Shown here: in pieces, positions 9,349 through 44,041 of the stretch | Layout: each line of letters opens with the position of its first letter | Numbering within the stretch: the stretch's first letter is position 1 | IMG/VR virus record: IMGVR_UViG_3300045988_112808 | From: a virus | DNA: 64,000 nt | Strand: one strand, 5' to 3' | Program-made: the position numbers and the translations under genes | Notes under the pieces: model-generated | Told to the model about the DNA's origin: nothing | Seen by the model: only the letters and a program-made list of their open reading frames with translations | The model's database searches: none

Positions 9349-9431
9349 AAGGCATACATTTTCCTACATTTGTGTGTTCTTTAGTTTTTAGATTTAAGTT
9401 TTTCATGGTATTAGTTTAGATTAGTGTAGAT

Positions 9432-12246: not shown

Positions 12247-12552
12247 ATGTGTGATAAGGAAATTGTTGTATGCGCAGCTATATGGGTTCAAGATCACAAG
12301 AACAAGCCTCACGGTCCAGTAAACATACCATCCGGAACCGTATTTTGTGGATTGAGACATTGTTCCATAATATCTCAACTTGCGGCATACGGTATAGCCC
12401 ATAAAAACCGCAGTGTTCAAGGATTTTTGACGAGCAAGAACCGGTTTTTAACAAGAGAGGAAGCATCTGAACTTGTTAAGAGCAATAATCAGGAAATGGT
12501 AGTAGATAGGAGTGCTATTAGAGAACAATTGTATTCAGAAGATCTATATTAA
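12247..12552 (+). CDS. hypothetical protein
   Basis: ORF track. Confidence 0.6.
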   Translation: MCDKEIVVCAAIWVQDHKNKPHGPVNIPSGTVFCGLRHCSIISQLAAYGIAHKNRSVQGFLTSKNRFLTREEASELVKSNNQEMVVDRSAIREQLYSEDLY

Positions 12553-13913: not shown

Positions 13914-16900
13914 ATGACATCAGCGTGTATTATTAAAAGAGATAATAAAAAGAAAGTTGTTTCTGTCTCTACCATATCAGGGGACAGGTCTATGTTATTT
14001 GATAAAATAGCATCTATTCCTCTTATGGAGAACAGGGAACGGGCCACTACTGTTTTTAAAACCGTATTTTCTAATAAGTTCTTAAAGGCTTTTGGCGACT
14101 GGAGAAAGAGAGTGCCTATCAACAAACCGGCTTATAATAAGGTAAAATCCAACATCGATCTTATTCCGGAAGCCTATAGAGAAAGGGTGTTGGATAAGGC
14201 TTCTAAGATGAGTAATCCTGTTCTTGTGTCAAAATCAGATGTACCTTATGAAATCCAAGAATCGGGCTTTGGATTCTACAGCCAAAATCTGGGTGATAAT
14301 ATTATGTTGGTGGATGCTATGGTCCCGTCAAGTATTTCCGTACCGGAAGGACCGGGAATAGACGCCGGGCAGTATCTACAAGATGCTATATCTTCGGACT
14401 TCACTCCCGTATCTATGGTACAGGATAAGGGTGTTAATTATATGGTTATAAAAGATGGTCTTAAGATATTTAGCCCAGAGGAGTTACCAGAAACAGATTC
14501 TAATCCTGTGGGTGTAACGTATCAGACCGGAGAGCCTCGTTTGTTTTTCATGAACGATCGTAGTCAATTATTTGAAGATTACGGAGAAGCTCTTCGCTCT
14601 GGCGGGAATGATATTAGAATAGGGTTCTTATCAGGCACCGTTCAAGAATCTACCGTGGATGGCGTGGAAGACATTACTTACAAAGCTGGAAAGTATGTTC
14701 TTAATAATCCCAAGTCTTTTATACCGGTCATGACCGCGTCTGCTTCTACTTCTTTATCAACAAAAGGTGGTATAATTAACTACCTTATAAAGAAAGGTCT
14801 TTTGTCCGGATCTAAGATATTCGATCCTGAAACAAGAAGCTATTATCTTACAGGAGAAGGACATACAGGACAAATTAGACTTTTCAATTCAGCCTTATCC
14901 TACACCGAGCTCCGTAATCATTTTGGTTCCGATGTTTCCATGAACGACCAAGGTATGATAACCATAAGCTCGTTGGATAATAGTAAGGTAACTATGAGGC
15001 TCGCCACCGGAGGAACGGAAAGGGTTAGCAAAGAGCAGATAAAGAACGATCTTAAGTCAGGAAGATACAATGAATTGGACGCCAAGTACGATCATTTTGA
15101 TGCGCTTGTAGTTTCATTCATATTAGAAGACAACGATCTTTATGCTGATACTAAAGCTAAGATCGTATCAGATTATAGCAGGCAGGAACGTGATCAACGA
15201 AATTCTATTGTCGAGATACTGAAAACTCTTGGCGTTAGTGTCATAGGTATGACCGACTATATAGAGAAGTACCAAACCAAATACGGGCATGAACCTTCTG
15301 CTAAGGCATTGGCGGATATTGCCAATAACGTAATAGCAGTTGGTGAAGATGCTACTTTATCTGATTTAGTAGAAGAAACAGCCCACTTCCTTGTAGAGGC
15401 ATACAGAGATCAGAATGCCGTTGAGGCTGTTCTGCAAGATGTAGAAGGTACGGAAGAGTGGAACCAGTATGCAGGTCAGTATTATAATACATACGGTAAG
15501 GTATATGAAGGAGCTGAGCTTGATAATGCTGTTAGGAGAGAAATTCTTGGAAAGATCCTCGCCATGGAGATGCAGACCGGCACAGCACAGGCGCCGGTAG
15601 AGCCCACCTCCTTCCTGGGGCGCGTCCGGCAGCTTCTCTCTGGAATCGTAAGCTGGCTTAAATCAGCTTTATCAACCCAAAGACAAGATTTGAATAACGT
15701 TATTAAAAACATTCGTGATCTTGCCATTACTGACATAGATAAAGGATTTGACACTTCTCTGTTAAAGGATAATGACTTTACATTATACTCCCTTTCTTCT
15801 ATGAACAAGAACAAGTTTCTTGAGTCTAAGATCAGATCACTAAGAAAAACATTAAGAGACTTACGTCAGATAAGCTCTGATAGGGCTGTAACTACGTCTA
15901 TGACCCTTGCTCAGCTTAAGACCATAGAAGATAAGATAAATAAGGTAGAGACCGAAATAGACAAGAATGAGATGGCGGCTGCCATGAACAGCATGATCTC
16001 CACAGCCGAAGCTCAGGTTAGATACTTAAGTAATGTGGTGAACACCATCCTTCATGGTGATACCAAAGACGGTAAGCTTCACTTCAATACCAATGATCGA
16101 AAGAACGTAGATATTATCAACAATCAGGTTCTTCCGATCATGAACGATCTTCGAGGATATATCCGTAACAGAAGTACCGAATTTGATGAACGTGAAAAGC
16201 AGGATTATACAAATAGGATCAATACCGTCATTGCCGACATCAATGGTATTCAGTCTGATATTAAATCAGTACAAGACCTTGATGAAAGTACGTTGCTTGA
16301 TAAGTTAATGAACGAACTTCATGTGCCGGCAGATAAGGTAAAGAGAGTAAAAGAATTTTTTGACAAGGTTCAACACGATGTTTCTTGGATAAGTAGGTGG
16401 TTTGGTATATTAGAGCATTCTTCCAGCCCGTTCAATAACGCTCTTGGAGCTATGATTGCCAAAGACAATTACAATGCGATGGTGAATGCCCAGCCCGCCA
16501 TATCCGACTTCCTGGCATATGCTAAAAAGCATGGTTTTAACAAATCTGAATTTGAAAAACTGCTTCAGAAAGTAGACGGCAAAACTTCCAATTACCTTCG
16601 TAGTGCTCTTGATATGGCTAAATACGATCGTAATAAGAAGCTGGCGCAGATGCGAGCGTTTGCGACTGCCATGAACATAGAGATATCAGAAGAAGAAATT
16701 GGTGATGTGGTTGACAATAACCGTAATTACGTATTTAAAAGAGAAGTAGTTGACAAGGACGGAAATACGGTTACTGAAAACGCTAAATTTAAACCATCGT
16801 CCGATAGGGTTAATACCGATATTTTTACCATCGAGCAGGAAAAGATCTATACGGAGCAGATGGAAAAGTGGGATGCTGAAAATTCAGAATTGGAATTTAG

Positions 16901-21947: not shown

Positions 21948-21990
21948 AGTTACCATCTTTTCTTGTATAAGCAGAACATGAAATAAGTTT

Positions 21991-22479
21991 CTAAGCATTA
22001 ACTTCATGACCTCCCCTATCCGTGAAAACTAAACCAATACCTTCTATGATATGTCCTACTACAGGAGCTTTGTCAAATTCCTCCTTCGTAGCCCAAGTAG
22101 CATTATCAGGCATCAGATCCTTGAATGCGTCCGAAACATCACCTTGACACCAGCAGTTATTTGATGTAACAATGCCTTTCCCTTCGATATTGATATACAT
22201 TTTTCTTCCACCACATCCAAGGCTGTTCCATCCGCTCGGTACGTTTTCCACCATAGGCTTAAGCACCCAGCTTACACCGTCTATCCTAACCCATCCCGGA
22301 TCGTCTTTGTGCTTGTCGTACAAGTTTTGCCAAAAAGAGCATTCGTAGCACCATCCCTTGTCTTCCATGATAGTTCTTATCTCACACCTTTCAAATCCAT
22401 CTGCATCCAACGTGTGCGGAGAATGAGGCTGGTGAGGGGTGCCACATTTTGGACATACGAGTTTTAAATTATCTTTCAT
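21991..22479 (-). CDS. hypothetical zinc-ribbon protein
   Basis: N-terminal CPKCG...H..H motif. Confidence 0.7.
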   Translation of the reverse strand: MKDNLKLVCPKCGTPHQPHSPHTLDADGFERCEIRTIMEDKGWCYECSFWQNLYDKHKDDPGWVRIDGVSWVLKPMVENVPSGWNSLGCGGRKMYINIEGKGIVTSNNCWCQGDVSDAFKDLMPDNATWATKEEFDKAPVVGHIIEGIGLVFTDRGGHEVNA

Positions 22480-22684
22480 ATTGCTTTACTTTTACGATTT
22501 TAATAGAATCACCAATATTGTATTCTCCTTGGTATCCAACGAATTTTATAATTCTATTATTTTTAAATATTGAAACTCTTTCGTCTTCACCATAATATAT
22601 CACACGTCCACCATCTAAAGGAAGTAGATCATATATAACCCATCCTTCATTAACCTGATCATCAATAAAATAAAATACCTCATA
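22469..22684 (-). other. 71-codon open frame without start codon, in frame with upstream gene 22691..22882 across TGA-AAA-TAA
   Basis: protein-like translation (YEVFYFIDDQVNEGWVIYDLLPLDGGRVIYYGEDERVSIF...) with no ATG/GTG/TTG in first 28 codons. Confidence 0.3.
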
Positions 22685-22690
22685 TTATTT

Positions 22691-22882
22691 TCAACATAAA
22701 AATTTGTAACCTGGTTTTACTGCCTCTGCTTCTTCTTTTGTATCAAACATTAAGGTAGTGACAGCTCCTATGCCTTCACAAACGTAAGATACTTTTACCC
22801 ACCACCTGAAAATTCCCGATCCGTAATCATCATAATACGGCTCGGAAAGGACCTCTTCTACGTACCCATCTAAGTAATTCAT
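22691..22882 (-). CDS. hypothetical protein
   Basis: ORF track. Confidence 0.6.
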   Translation of the reverse strand: MNYLDGYVEEVLSEPYYDDYGSGIFRWWVKVSYVCEGIGAVTTLMFDTKEEAEAVKPGYKFLC

Positions 22883-23625
22883 GATCGCTCCTCCTTATTT
22901 TCAGATTCTGCCTCTTCGAGTATGCTGATCACCTTATCAACAATATCCGAATCAGACATTTTCTCAATAAAAACATCCATTGCCTTAGTTATGTCATTGG
23001 CTTCTTTTTCTTCAAGAGCAATCTCTCCACCGGTAATAGCATCAGATAATGATGTAGATAAGTGTCTTATCTTATCAATGCTCATAAACGTAAATGGATT
23101 ACCACCCCAGCCTCCACCCATTTCTTTCATAATCTGATATCCACCTGAAATAAGTCTGCCTGATGTCGTGGCCAAGGAGGATACGATTAGGGACAGCACC
23201 GCCACCTCCGTCCGCTCCTCCGACACGCCCTTCGACCACACGGCTGCCCTTATAGCGCCGGCCAGGTCGTCTATGTATGGCATGAGGCAATCTTCCATCG
23301 CTTGTGTTATATCAGCTATAACCTCACTACGCTCTTTATTTATGTAGTAGATAGAAGCATTGTACCTCTTTATCTCTTTGTCCATGTCATTTAAAAGACG
23401 CTTGATATTGTGCTTATACATAGGACTGGTTTTAATTACTTCCTTTAGCTTAAGAATGTAATTATAAGCCTGGTCGTTTACAAACAACGTCATGGTCTCA
23501 ACCGTTGAATGAAGCGTGTTAAGACTGTTAAGAATCTTATCGAAATTGTTTATCAAATAAGCTCTTATGGCTTTTGCTGCGTAGTTAATGTTATTAAAAT
23601 TATTCATTTTATTCATTAGATTCAA
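22879..23625 (-). CDS. hypothetical protein (248 aa)
   Basis: ORF track; starts 8 nt after tnpB-like stop. Confidence 0.65.
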   Translation of the reverse strand: MNLMNKMNNFNNINYAAKAIRAYLINNFDKILNSLNTLHSTVETMTLFVNDQAYNYILKLKEVIKTSPMYKHNIKRLLNDMDKEIKRYNASIYYINKERSEVIADITQAMEDCLMPYIDDLAGAIRAAVWSKGVSEERTEVAVLSLIVSSLATTSGRLISGGYQIMKEMGGGWGGNPFTFMSIDKIRHLSTSLSDAITGGEIALEEKEANDITKAMDVFIEKMSDSDIVDKVISILEEAESENKEERS

Positions 23626-23632
23626 CCTTATA

Positions 23633-24820
23633 TCACAAAATATTTATTCTAACCGGATTAAACACAAATCCACTATCGATTATCTTTCCAATGAAAGAAT
23701 CACCGATTACTTTTCTTGCTATTCCAATTGCTCCATTAATATCTGCATTGATCAGCTTCCCAATAGAACTTTGAAACAATCCGCGTTTCTTCCTTCTACC
23801 TAAGTAGGATTCTTGTTTCTTTAGAGGTTCAAAAGCAAGATGGTCAATCTTTGATGTGTAAGATTCCTCATGAGTAATTACCTCTATCCCTAAAAGATTT
23901 GCTTTGTAAACAATCTTATCAATCAATTTAGAATGAGGAATAGAAACAAAATGTTGGTTATTCCTTTTACCGATATTTATCTCGTTTTTCCATTCTTTGT
24001 TTAATCCAATGATGATTGTTCCTATATTGTTAGATTTACAAAAGTCTACAATGTATCTACTGATTTTATGCAATTTGTCTTCTATCCAACAATTTCTAAA
24101 CAAAGTAATTTTTCTTATTCTATTTGAAGTTCCCTTATTACCAACAAAAGACATCAACTTAGCTTTCTTCTTATTGTACCACTGATTTACTGATTTCATA
24201 ACCCGTCCGTTTATAATGAAAGAATTAACTACATTACTAATACATGAACATAAATTATTCAATCCTAAATCAATCGAAAGAAAATTGTCTTTGTTTAAAC
24301 CAAGATCAGTTTCCTTTCTTTCATAAACTACCTCTACTACATAACATGTAGCTTGAGGGATTATTCTAACTTGTTTTAGTTTGTCTTTCTTTACATTTGT
24401 TTTGATAGGTTTGATTATATCTTTAACAAAATAAATACAATTATCACCCTTTACCCTACAATTGCAGTTGGTGAAAACAACCATGTTTTGTTTCTTACCT
24501 TGTTTGTATGATGGAAGGTGAGGTCTATGATTTCCGTATTTAGAAGGATTCTTTTCAAAATCCTTCTTGAGTTTTATCCAGGATTTTATGTTTTTAAATA
24601 CCTGTTTAATCACCTGTTGGGATACATGATTAGGTAAATTCCTGAAATCGAATTGGTTTTCTTTGCAAAGTTTGTTTGATAAATCAAATTCCTTTAAATA
24701 GTTACCTGAAAAGATTCCTTGACGAATGTTGTAAAGAACATAATTATATAACAAGCCGGATTTGAAGCAAATATCCTCAAACCGGTTGTCTTTAACTATA
24801 TGCCTTTCAACTAATCTCAT
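23633..24820 (-). CDS. tnpB: TnpB-like RuvC-fold protein lacking the zinc finger
   Basis: Conserved LPNHVSQQVIKQVFKNIKSW helix; RuvC-I SIDLGLNN; RuvC-III NADINGAIGIA. No Cys-based zinc finger between RuvC-II and RuvC-III. Confidence 0.8.
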   Translation of the reverse strand: MRLVERHIVKDNRFEDICFKSGLLYNYVLYNIRQGIFSGNYLKEFDLSNKLCKENQFDFRNLPNHVSQQVIKQVFKNIKSWIKLKKDFEKNPSKYGNHRPHLPSYKQGKKQNMVVFTNCNCRVKGDNCIYFVKDIIKPIKTNVKKDKLKQVRIIPQATCYVVEVVYERKETDLGLNKDNFLSIDLGLNNLCSCISNVVNSFIINGRVMKSVNQWYNKKKAKLMSFVGNKGTSNRIRKITLFRNCWIEDKLHKISRYIVDFCKSNNIGTIIIGLNKEWKNEINIGKRNNQHFVSIPHSKLIDKIVYKANLLGIEVITHEESYTSKIDHLAFEPLKKQESYLGRRKKRGLFQSSIGKLINADINGAIGIARKVIGDSFIGKIIDSGFVFNPVRINIL

Positions 24821-24873
24821 TTGAATGATTTATATCGTAAATGTAATCGTTATTTGTAAAATAATCAAATTAT

Positions 24874-25416
24874 TCAATCATCGCATTCAAATTTTAGATT
24901 TTCAAGTTCGTGTATTTGTAACTTAAGAGACTTAATTAAATTCGTTCTCTGTTCCTCTGCATGTTTTAAAGCCTCTTCCTTGCTTTCAAAAGCACAATCC
25001 CCTATCTGATAAGGGGTGTAACGACCAGGAGTGTCGGCTAATAAAAGACCACCACAATCTTCTATTCTGGCTTTTACCTTTCTTATTTTCCCATCTTTTA
25101 GACACATGTCTGTAACCCATACGAATTTACCATATAATTTATCATACTCTTCTAATCTCTCTTCTTGCAATTCATACCATTTCGGCTTAGGAAATCTTAA
25201 TGTGAATTTAACCTCAGTATCTTTTTCTAAGACATTAATATCGTATGCTTCCGGCCACAGCTCTTTTATGCTGTCTTCGTCTTCGGCATACGCTACAAGT
25301 ATGAATGAATCATCGGATTCACCACTACACCAATATGGATATTTTATAGGCCATTTGACTGGACGGTAGTCGTTACCGCAGTCGGATTTTTTAATGTAAA
25401 ATCTTGCTCTAATCAT
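24874..25416 (-). CDS. hypothetical protein
   Basis: ORF track. Confidence 0.65.
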   Translation of the reverse strand: MIRARFYIKKSDCGNDYRPVKWPIKYPYWCSGESDDSFILVAYAEDEDSIKELWPEAYDINVLEKDTEVKFTLRFPKPKWYELQEERLEEYDKLYGKFVWVTDMCLKDGKIRKVKARIEDCGGLLLADTPGRYTPYQIGDCAFESKEEALKHAEEQRTNLIKSLKLQIHELENLKFECDD

Positions 25417-25423
25417 ATCGTTA

Positions 25424-25735
25424 TTAATCTAATAATTTTTCTATTTTAATTGATTTTGATGATAGATACATATTCCACGTTCCTCTGCCTCTATCACCTT
25501 TTTCGTTTTGTTTTTGGATTGTCAAGTACAGATCTCCGTCTTCACATACTTCAACTTTTTTCAAGAAGCCTATCATTTCATCTCCTGCTTCGTGTAAAAT
25601 ACGGATCTTATCTCCTTCTTTTAACCCATAATTGGAATCAAAATATTCTTTTTTGATTCTATCAATATTGTCTTTATGGTTTTTTATAGCATAAAGCTCT
25701 TTTCTTAATAAATAATTTAGTTGTTCTATTGTCAT
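25424..25735 (-). CDS. hypothetical protein
   Basis: ORF track. Confidence 0.6.
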   Translation of the reverse strand: MTIEQLNYLLRKELYAIKNHKDNIDRIKKEYFDSNYGLKEGDKIRILHEAGDEMIGFLKKVEVCEDGDLYLTIQKQNEKGDRGRGTWNMYLSSKSIKIEKLLD

Positions 25736-43337: not shown

Positions 43338-43604
43338 CTAAGGTAATAGATCATCCAAATAAGCCCATGATTCCATTTCATCTAATCTGCATAAAATACA
43401 TCCTGGACGGCTGGATATAAAAGTTCTGTTCTCTTCCAATATACCCATAATTGGATTCTTTGATCCTATTGTTGATTTCTTAGGGAGAAACACAATAAAA
43501 CGGTGGCAATCTGGAATTACTGTTATAGAATGCCACACGCTGTTAATGCGCCATTCTGCACCAGCTTTAAAAAGAGGAACAGCAAATTCTATATCTTGTT
43601 TCAT
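43338..43604 (-). CDS. hypothetical protein
   Basis: ORF track. Confidence 0.55.
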   Translation of the reverse strand: MKQDIEFAVPLFKAGAEWRINSVWHSITVIPDCHRFIVFLPKKSTIGSKNPIMGILEENRTFISSRPGCILCRLDEMESWAYLDDLLP

Positions 43605-43648
43605 GTCTTATTATTGTTTAATTAATTTAAATATTTTTAGTTTTGAAA

Positions 43649-43894
43649 TTATTTAATATGCTTATCGGCTGGATTGATTATCAATCCATCGTCACATGAA
43701 GGGAATGATATGTTAGATTCTCCATTATCAAGATTAGTCAGTTTAACCGTTCCAGCATATTCATCATCCACAAAAAACAATTGACCCGAAGAAACCACAA
43801 ACCTGCATTGATATGCATTCATCATTGCTCCAAGTTGTCTAATCTTAGTTTTAATCTCTAAAAGTTGAGCGTTGTTGATTATATTCTTATTCAT
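43649..43894 (-). CDS. hypothetical protein
   Basis: ORF track. Confidence 0.55.
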   Translation of the reverse strand: MNKNIINNAQLLEIKTKIRQLGAMMNAYQCRFVVSSGQLFFVDDEYAGTVKLTNLDNGESNISFPSCDDGLIINPADKHIK

Positions 43895-43900
43895 ATTTTA

Positions 43901-44041
43901 TTAAAGTTTATCTATTATTTTGTCACCCATTTCCTGCCATTCATCACTCACGCTTATAACCAATCCTATGACAGTTGATGATAATAACAATGTAAAAATA
44001 AGCCATAACAGAAAGCAGATAAAAACACATACATACCTCAT
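43901..44041 (-). CDS. small single-TM membrane peptide (46 aa)
   Basis: ATG ORF below cutoff: MRYVCVFICFLLWLIFTLLLSSTVIGLVISVSDEWQEMGDKIIDKL. Confidence 0.45.
   Translation of the reverse strand: MRYVCVFICFLLWLIFTLLLSSTVIGLVISVSDEWQEMGDKIIDKL

Follow-up and report, generated by a model that had tools for sequence, protein, structure and literature searches.

Is a tnpB gene that sits in a phage operon without a transposase, between two neighbours that leave it almost no flanking DNA, a regulator domesticated by its phage, or does it belong to a mobile element? The question is raised by a 64,000-nucleotide stretch of viral DNA, the IMG/VR record IMGVR_UViG_3300045988_112808 (hereafter the window), in which a tnpB gene encodes a protein of 395 amino acids (aa) that lacks both a zinc finger and the usual catalytic glutamate, and which an earlier note had taken for a domesticated relative of the TldR type. 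We favour, at a probability of roughly 80%, a TnpB/omega-RNA element of the IS607 family that is non-autonomous and resides in an epsilon crAss-like gut phage; its nuclease would cut element-free alleles, after which recombination would copy the element back, with TnpA acting in trans for new sites. Elements of this kind are ordinary; the setting is newly characterised. The original claim matters little, the zinc-finger-less, TnpA-less state with a relocated Glu being ordinary in a large, described TnpB clade. Epsilon crAss-like phages were already known to contain TnpB genes (PMC11054128).

Empty alleles, element ends and transposase-bearing relatives

The boundaries of the element were defined by comparison with alleles that lack it. 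The nearest sequenced phage, crAssE-Sib (OR575929, epsilon crAss-like; locus L001), is 90-99% identical to the window on both flanks by blastn and has no tnpB at this site. There the flanks are contiguous, window 21974-23610 corresponding to L001 3001-4674 and window 24876-25416 to L001 4648-5188. Written in gene orientation, with slashes at the junctions, the empty allele reads ...TACGATGAT / TAATTACGCGG (GATGAT/TAATTAC at the junction itself) and the occupied allele of the window reads ...TGCGATGAT / TGAATAATTTG...tnpB...AATAATTTTAATAACAT / TAACTACGCAGC. Similarity to a copy of the element at another site (L002) stops at 23588. The insert comprises the following parts, given with the flanking motif (nt, nucleotides; ORF, open reading frame):

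23588..24876, minus strand: whole insert, 1,289 bp including the terminal AT, read as a TnpA-less IS607-family element
23633..24820, minus strand: tnpB coding sequence, 395 aa, an uninterrupted ORF
24821..24876, minus strand: left end (LE), 56 nt, TGAATAATTTG...CATTCAA, from the empty-allele comparison
23588..23632, minus strand: right end (RE) past the tnpB stop, 45 nt, ending ...AATAATTTTAATAACAT
24877..24882, minus strand: left flank GATGAT, with the candidate target-adjacent motif (TAM) or target motif ...GAT

The earlier note had argued that the locus leaves no room for transposon ends. Its upstream gap was correct, the 180-aa gene on that side ending 53 nt ahead of the tnpB ATG, and its downstream gap of 8 nt is 7 nt (measured to the TTG-start reading of the downstream ORF, 22879..23625), but the argument itself fails, because the LE and RE defined by the empty alleles are very short and overlap the stop and start signals of the neighbouring genes. 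Terminal inverted repeats were not found, the junctions in the window and in L021 sharing only AT when compared with their empty alleles; the AT of the left flank (24878-24877) recurs as the last two bases of RE, and the empty alleles show no target duplication beyond 2 nt. IS607 elements, e.g. H. pylori IS607 and ISXfa1, likewise have no inverted repeats, no real target duplication and a dinucleotide common to both junctions. A model of crossover within a 2-bp 'core' fits the window, L021 and L053, and fits L075, L062 and L064 only with an assumed later mutation.

A protein-guided scan of IMG/VR recovered 80 loci with a TnpB 69-99% identical to that of the window. All of them except L009 have an RE ending in ...TTTTAATAAC(A/G)T, past which similarity is lost and 26 different right flanks follow. 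Besides the window site, about 25 others have the same ends, with TnpB relatives 69-93% identical in aa sequence; the full-length LE is common to about 15 sites, and a few copies have a 5'-truncated LE. At the sites inspected with a ...AACAT RE (about 19, including six sites of the autonomous element described below), GAT lies directly 5' of LE, with the exception of L034 (AAT), and at the seven inspected with a ...AACGT RE, LE is flanked on the left by TAT. Where the earlier note looked to hairpins and a target motif as the mark of transposon ends, ends with a ...(G/T)AT target motif are present at those other sites, whereas hairpins were not found: RNAalifold returned no conserved LE hairpin for 15 LE variants on either strand, and the stems in RE are better explained as omega-RNA than as subterminal hairpins. 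Elsewhere in the window, a weak match to the RE terminus, AATGTTTTTAATAACGT, with two mismatches, lies at 15697-15713 (minus strand) within a 2137-aa gene and is consistent with chance.

At the site occupied in the window, IMG/VR holds at least 117 contigs with an uninterrupted junction versus about 21 with the insertion, which is a presence/absence polymorphism. Empty alleles are known for five further sites. Two of these empty alleles are provided by the window itself, at ~9392-9396 and ~12509-12547, where related TnpB elements are present elsewhere (L021/L042 and L024-L028, respectively); the window genome holds potential targets for these sister elements. Within the latter group, L025 has the same insertion as L024, with a 100% identical element, and is without 35 nt of the flank beside RE; this deletion ends at another GAT/T and removes the ATG of the downstream gene, and may be a one-ended or abortive recombination event.

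The 64-kb window contains no tnpA detectable by tblastn, as the earlier note had said, and no second TnpB copy was found in it; in the element itself, the junction and the tnpB ATG are separated by 56 nt with no tnpA. The transposase was found in relatives. Contig L044 (IMGVR_UViG_3300045988_093114) encodes a 194-aa TnpA with HTH_17 and Resolvase domains (72 bits), abutting a TnpB 77% identical to that of the window, with the same LE type upstream of tnpA and the same RE downstream of tnpB. The autonomous TnpA+TnpB unit (L044, L088-L094) occurs on seven phage contigs at six sites, and its TnpA is 99-100% identical between them, indicating current transposition of the unit. In L044 3417-8035, this unit is followed 1.7 kb downstream by a separate TnpB-only element, and the gene between the two starts MNNFNNM..., with an RE-encoded N-terminus. 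Distant relatives in Helicobacter phages also adjoin a 'resolvase'. Because the TnpA of the relatives is a serine recombinase, we assign the family to the IS607 type and the window copy to a TnpA-less derivative; the placement of a helix-turn-helix plus serine-recombinase TnpA directly upstream of tnpB, and overlapping it, in the autonomous relatives is that of IS607.

DNA divergence between TnpA-less copies at different sites is at least 7% (they are never more than 93% identical). These copies appear to be long-resident lineages at their sites rather than recent jumps, and the window copy has therefore probably not moved by itself recently. Together with the near-identity of TnpA among autonomous units, this suggests that only the TnpA-bearing form transposes now and that TnpB-only copies persist as site-resident lineages. 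The view that the locus is not a live insertion sequence was correct in that the copy is non-autonomous and probably not self-moved of late, and incorrect in that it belongs to a mobile family with real ends; a search for the same gene at similar loci, suggested along with that view, led to the roughly 25 further sites and the six autonomous-unit sites, and so to a mobile family. Among 185,579 species genomes of bacteria and archaea no close relative was found, the best match being 41% identical in a Heimdallarchaeota metagenome-assembled genome, so that the lineage appears phage-restricted; a host-borne autonomous copy was not found in the same scan.

One alternative affiliation would make the insert a TnpB-only element of the IS200/IS605 type, moved by a Y1 (HUH) TnpA through single-strand 'peel and paste'. 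The TAM of ISDra2 is TTGAT. The AT-rich, GAT-ending motif of the present family resembles it and agrees with the AT-rich preference of IS200/IS605 (PMC13565253), a target duplication limited to 2 nt would fit as well, and the TnpB-only form is the commonest among IS200/IS605 elements (PMC10691335). We nevertheless consider this affiliation unlikely, given that all autonomous relatives found have a serine recombinase directly upstream of tnpB between the same types of LE and RE, that the Helicobacter-phage relatives adjoin a 'resolvase', and that LE has no conserved hairpin. A search of the window and the loci with a Y1 TnpA query, itself a weak test, gave no match.

The TnpB protein and its predicted catalytic residues

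The 395-aa product carries the motifs that the earlier note had named, SIDLG, IIIGLNKEW (residues 269-277) and NADINGAIGIA, at the places given there. It matches the NCBIfam model NF040570 guided_TnpB with 156.6 bits (cut-off 100) over residues 18-370 and the Pfam family PF01385 (OrfB_IS605) with 65.9 bits, and PF07282 (Cas12f1-like TNB) scores 32.7 bits against a cut-off of 26.3 despite the absent Cys; PHROG 506, 'transposase', also matches. The residues on which the argument turns are:

24271-24269, minus strand: codon of D184 (RuvC-I, SIDLG)
24007-24005, minus strand: codon of Gly272, at the canonical RuvC-II position
23866-23864, minus strand: codon of the alternative Glu, E319 (EESYTSK motif)
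23743-23741, minus strand: codon of D360 (RuvC-III, NADINGAIGIA)

Residues 296-395, i.e. everything up to the C-terminus, contain no Cys, and therefore no CxxC...CxxC zinc finger, as had been stated; nor does a frameshift hide one, the ORF being continuous and the Cys-less TNB conserved in all relatives. The suspicion that the RuvC-II Glu might be replaced by Asn or shifted was partly right: the canonical Glu is missing, the residue at its position is Gly272 rather than Asn, and the Glu appears to be shifted to E319. The clade comparison drew on 1,101 clusters (50% identity) reached at E<=1e-30; their best 133 full-length representatives share 36-50% identity with the window TnpB. D184, G272, K278 and D360 are each invariant in 133 of these 133, E319 is kept in 132, and a CxxC between YTSK and NAD is present in none. 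A single vestigial Cys at position 325 remains in 86 of the 133, and E319 lies six residues ahead of this position. RuvC-I of the window protein reads IDLG, Pro occurring in only 4 of the 133. Because both are clade-wide, the missing finger and the 'missing' Glu are lineage traits and not signs of attenuation or domestication.

By its sequence, the window TnpB is to be classed with the published 'alternative Glu' (RIIr/Ealt) type. In the RIIr clades of Altae-Tran et al. (2023), 'Ealt' TnpBs, pro-Fanzors and Fanzors the canonical Glu is likewise replaced (by Gly, as here, in RIIr-5) and the alternative Glu stands six residues before the position of the zinc-finger Cys. In Fanzors a Glu at that place supports catalysis, and prokaryotic TnpBs of the RIIr/pro-Fanzor type show this relocation as well (PMC10711439, PMC13565253, PMC10691335); for clades of the RIIr type, the site is judged from models and structures to be rearranged but still active (PMC10691335, PMC10711439, PMC13565253). 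The NADxN signature of RuvC-III is shared with 'derived' TnpBs (PMC10691335, PMC10711439, PMC13565253). IS607-like TnpBs of Helicobacter phages, 42-45% identical, have the same G-x-N-x-x-W-K and NADxN motifs and no zinc finger. Unlike Fanzors and pro-Fanzors, which have DPG in RuvC-I, the window protein has D-L-G, and the DPG+Ealt+CxxC expression of PMC10711439 does not describe it; and whereas the RIIr-5 consensus and Fanzors keep a C4 zinc finger, the window clade has lost it fully. In the published survey, loss of the finger is noted for no TnpBs other than 'some large branches' and RIIIr-4 (PMC10691335). crAssE-Sib, which has the empty allele, carries another TnpB, 45% identical, that likewise lacks the zinc finger and is of the Gly/Ealt type; its gene is at an unrelated locus, ahead of a 'muzzle protein' gene (L086 3001-4224; crAssE-Sib 64190-65413), and has no counterpart in the window.

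An alignment-based AlphaFold2 model (pLDDT 93.6, pTM 0.88), which replaced a single-sequence model with a pLDDT of 35.6, was compared by Foldseek and matched over its full length AsCas12f (E 1e-16), ISFba1 TnpB, ISDra2 TnpB (8h1j, TMt 0.67) and mimivirus Fanzor2. A phmmer search of the PDB with the window TnpB gave weak Cas12f matches only, and a profile search reached ISDra2 TnpB. In the model the fold is that of TnpB/Cas12f (WED/REC/RuvC/TNB), with the TNB region reduced to short beta-strands without metal ligands. D184, E319 and D360 would form a rearranged catalytic triad, with E319 at the published Ealt position, and the protein is most likely an active RNA-guided DNA nuclease.

These data bear directly on the proposal that the protein is a domesticated, nuclease-attenuated regulator resembling TldRs, which would bind the start of the downstream 245-aa gene or some other target to the benefit of the phage. 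TldRs are also TnpB-derived, stand without TnpA and adjoin a co-oriented, guide-matched gene; here, too, the window has no TnpA, the protein has neither the canonical RuvC-II Glu nor a zinc finger, TnpA-less copies with their divergence of at least 7% between sites look resident, and the guide (see below) corresponds, in this case by construction, to the beginning of the co-oriented gene beside it. However, in TldRs catalytic residues and the C-terminus are gone and the partner genes are fixed, whereas the D184/D360 pair and E319 are kept with the frequencies given above in proteins of full length, and the relatives adjoin unrelated genes at about 25 sites with conserved ends. Gly at RuvC-II and the loss of the zinc finger are found in transposase-associated relatives as well, and empty alleles (at least 117) stand against about 21 occupied ones. 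Self-binding at the occupied locus is not expected, because the target there is preceded by ...AACAT and not by ...GAT. With the predicted catalytic D/E/D set conserved, the insertion polymorphic, serine-recombinase relatives autonomous and the supposed signs of attenuation clade-wide, we judge domestication, the reading of the earlier note, to be very unlikely.

Predicted omega-RNA, guide and homing

The last ~170 nt of the element are near-invariant, including wobble positions, while the remaining DNA is ~80% identical between copies. Two RNA features are predicted in and beside this region:

23588..23706, minus strand: predicted omega-RNA (right-end RNA, reRNA) scaffold, ~120 nt, five helices, from RNAalifold and covariation
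23587..23570, minus strand: predicted guide TAACTACGCAGCAAAAGC, the flank directly 3' of RE

The scaffold overlaps the last 74 nt of tnpB, stop codon included, and the whole of RE; the earlier expectation that any scaffold must overlap coding sequence is borne out by the predicted one on both sides, by the tnpB 3' end and by RE, in which the downstream ORF now has its 5' end. RNAalifold was run on an alignment of 25 diverse copies, the helices occupying columns 151-243 (window 23706-23614). In the consensus helices 97.9% of cells are paired, compared with 34-52% when partners are slid by 1-3 columns; compensatory double changes affect 9 pairs, compared with 1-4 in the slid controls, and none of 500 shuffles matched the observed helix values. 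Folded alone, the window sequence forms the first two helices (z = -1.97). The conserved 3' RNA is predicted to be the expected omega-RNA scaffold, and in IS607, too, the tnpB 3' end together with RE encodes the guide RNA. The guide corresponds to codons 2-7 of the ancestral downstream gene and is unique within the window. An identical 20-mer stands directly after GATGAT in 20 of the 117 natural empty alleles listed, so that perfect targets exist in the population.

The same region speaks to the possibility that the insert is an inert relic, a decaying transposon remnant kept by linkage and without current RNA-guided activity. The copy is non-autonomous, recent transposition of TnpA-less copies is not evidenced, and a few copies are frameshifted (L002, L029, L045), all of which a relic would explain. 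Against decay, 79 of 82 tnpB ORFs are intact, the gene is under strong purifying selection (ratio of nonsynonymous to synonymous substitution rates, dN/dS, 0.08-0.13 versus relatives with dS up to ~1.9), and conservation in the omega-RNA region, which also has compensatory changes, exceeds that in the remainder of the gene. A relic is highly improbable in our estimate.

For the IS607-family TnpB/omega-RNA element that we favour, the following course of events is proposed. The omega-RNA transcript would read past RE into ~16-20 nt of phage flank, beginning with the predicted guide. TnpB with this RNA would cut element-free alleles in which the guide match follows directly after ...GAT, the predicted target being GATGAT-TAACTACGCAGCAAAAGCCA. 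The genomes cut would be those of co-infecting related phages, or those from which the element has been excised. Recombinational repair from an occupied genome would then copy the element in, amounting to homing or marker exclusion, and insertion at a new site would need serine-recombinase TnpA in trans from the autonomous relatives.

Several points weigh against this reading. The junctions, AT/(G/T)AT, and the RE termini, CAT or CGT rather than GG, depart from most IS607 members, which have GG termini and G-rich TAMs (AGGAG/GAGGG) (PMC13565253). RAGATH-18, the IS607-associated family of Rfam, was not matched, and a search of Rfam at E<=1 over 23300-25100 returned nothing at all, including no IS605-orfB motif, group I intron or IStron. 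In these junctions, in the want of an Rfam match and in the lack of a conserved LE hairpin, as in having no tnpA and residing on a crAss-like phage replicon, the window copy is unlike IS607. At the left junction, the shared ATT leaves a margin of 2-3 nt in the placement of the crossover, and the divergence of at least 7% between TnpA-less copies gives no evidence of recent mobility for this class. Nuclease activity, guide length and TAM are features that we infer, as we do homing between phages from the presence/absence polymorphism alone.

ISDra2 offers a close functional parallel, with a TnpB of ~400 aa and the same fold, an omega-RNA over the tnpB 3' end, a flank-derived guide, a 5' motif ending in GAT and a proposed homing role; the canonical Glu, the C4 zinc finger, the Y1 TnpA partner and the hairpin ends of ISDra2 have no counterpart in the window element. 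TnpB is known to drive homing, and in plasmid populations the spread that it drives can be independent of TnpA (PMC10055086, PMC13565253). The free-standing homing endonucleases of the T4 Seg/Mob type are comparable in being small selfish nuclease genes between conserved phage genes, with presence/absence polymorphism and, by prediction, the element-free allele of co-infecting phages as target (PMC13565253). They differ in that the window element has transposon ends and would recognise its target through a flank-copied guide RNA and not through protein.

The locus is of use as a compact (1.29 kb), cleanly delimited TnpB/omega-RNA unit for which natural perfect targets exist among the listed empty alleles in crAss-like phages, the most abundant phage group of the human gut. 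With these targets it is a ready natural system for TnpB-driven homing between co-infecting phages. The family of ~395-aa, zinc-finger-less nucleases of the Ealt type, with many diverged members and their paired scaffolds, may also be of interest for miniature editors.

Start codons at the right junction and neighbouring genes

The two genes beside the element are:

22879..23616, minus strand: downstream phage gene, ~245 aa from the ATG at 23616, outside the element, the first 9 codons supplied by RE
24874..25416, minus strand: upstream phage gene, 180 aa, outside the element, 98.7% identical to L001 4648-5188

The first triplet of LE, TGA (24876-24874), is the present stop codon of the upstream gene, which in the empty allele stops at TAA. 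LE presumably also carries the tnpB promoter and 5' untranslated region. The downstream gene now starts within RE, where ATGs in its frame lie at 23616 and 23607, and its product begins MNKMNNFNN-INYAAKA... in the window and MINYAAKA... in crAssE-Sib; the homologue there, WOZ57330, has 237 aa, its gene overlapping the upstream one by ATGATTAA. With a stop provided by LE for the upstream gene and starts provided by RE for the downstream one, the insertion is translationally harmless.

This arrangement extends beyond the window. We set the reading frame by the RE-terminal codon, (A/G)TN with the junction after T, and scored its open length at 26 sites. The frame was open for at least 60 codons at 16 of them (64-1,318 codons), compared with 2 of 26 for the +1 frame and 0 of 26 for the +2 frame. 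Where empty alleles are available (L075, L050), the downstream ATG proves to be split after AT by the insertion, and in the occupied state RE...GT plus the target G remakes a GTG start. REs of the ...CAT type have an in-frame ATG 18 nt upstream, giving M(N/S)NFNN; in the window, whose junction falls one codon into the downstream gene, it is this ATG that rescues the gene. A common opening of LE is (A)TAGTTGAATAA, with stops in each of the three frames. At the L053 site, the 'empty' alleles in L078 and L050 (~933-948) read ...TAT-CGTG-CAAAC, like the RE terminus ...AACGTG; this may be either the footprint of an excision or a GTG start that is native.

The pattern was unexpected and is a useful feature; no description of it was found in the literature searched. 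It could reflect target choice by TnpA/TnpB or survivorship in a gene-dense genome. Tentatively, and with somewhat less than even confidence in the whole taken jointly, it may be read as follows: a phage-restricted IS607 lineage adapted to packed operons inserts, or survives, at the RTG start of a co-oriented gene. The start codon would contribute its first two bases as the junction dinucleotide and be restored where RE joins the flank, or otherwise, as in the window, the ATGs of RE would add a short MN(K)MNNFNN leader. The stops at the opening of LE, (A)TAG-TTGA-ATAA, would end the upstream ORF and leave the element translationally neutral, and the guide would consist of the first codons of the downstream gene, serving an RNA-guided homing or competition nuclease between co-infecting crAss-like phages.

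A second presence/absence cassette lies beside the TnpB site. In crAssE-Sib a 1.1-kb DNA (cytosine-5)-methyltransferase gene (L001 5185-6312) sits between the homologues of the 180-aa gene and of a 103-aa gene, which in the window are 7 nt apart (25416-25424). Further away, a 413-bp stretch of the window (43531-43942), including an 81-aa ORF (43649..43894, minus strand), is 99.8% identical to L002 7954-8366 (MT835500.1), a gut phage contig that is otherwise diverged and that also bears a frameshifted copy of the TnpB element; the stretch looks like a recently exchanged small gene cassette.

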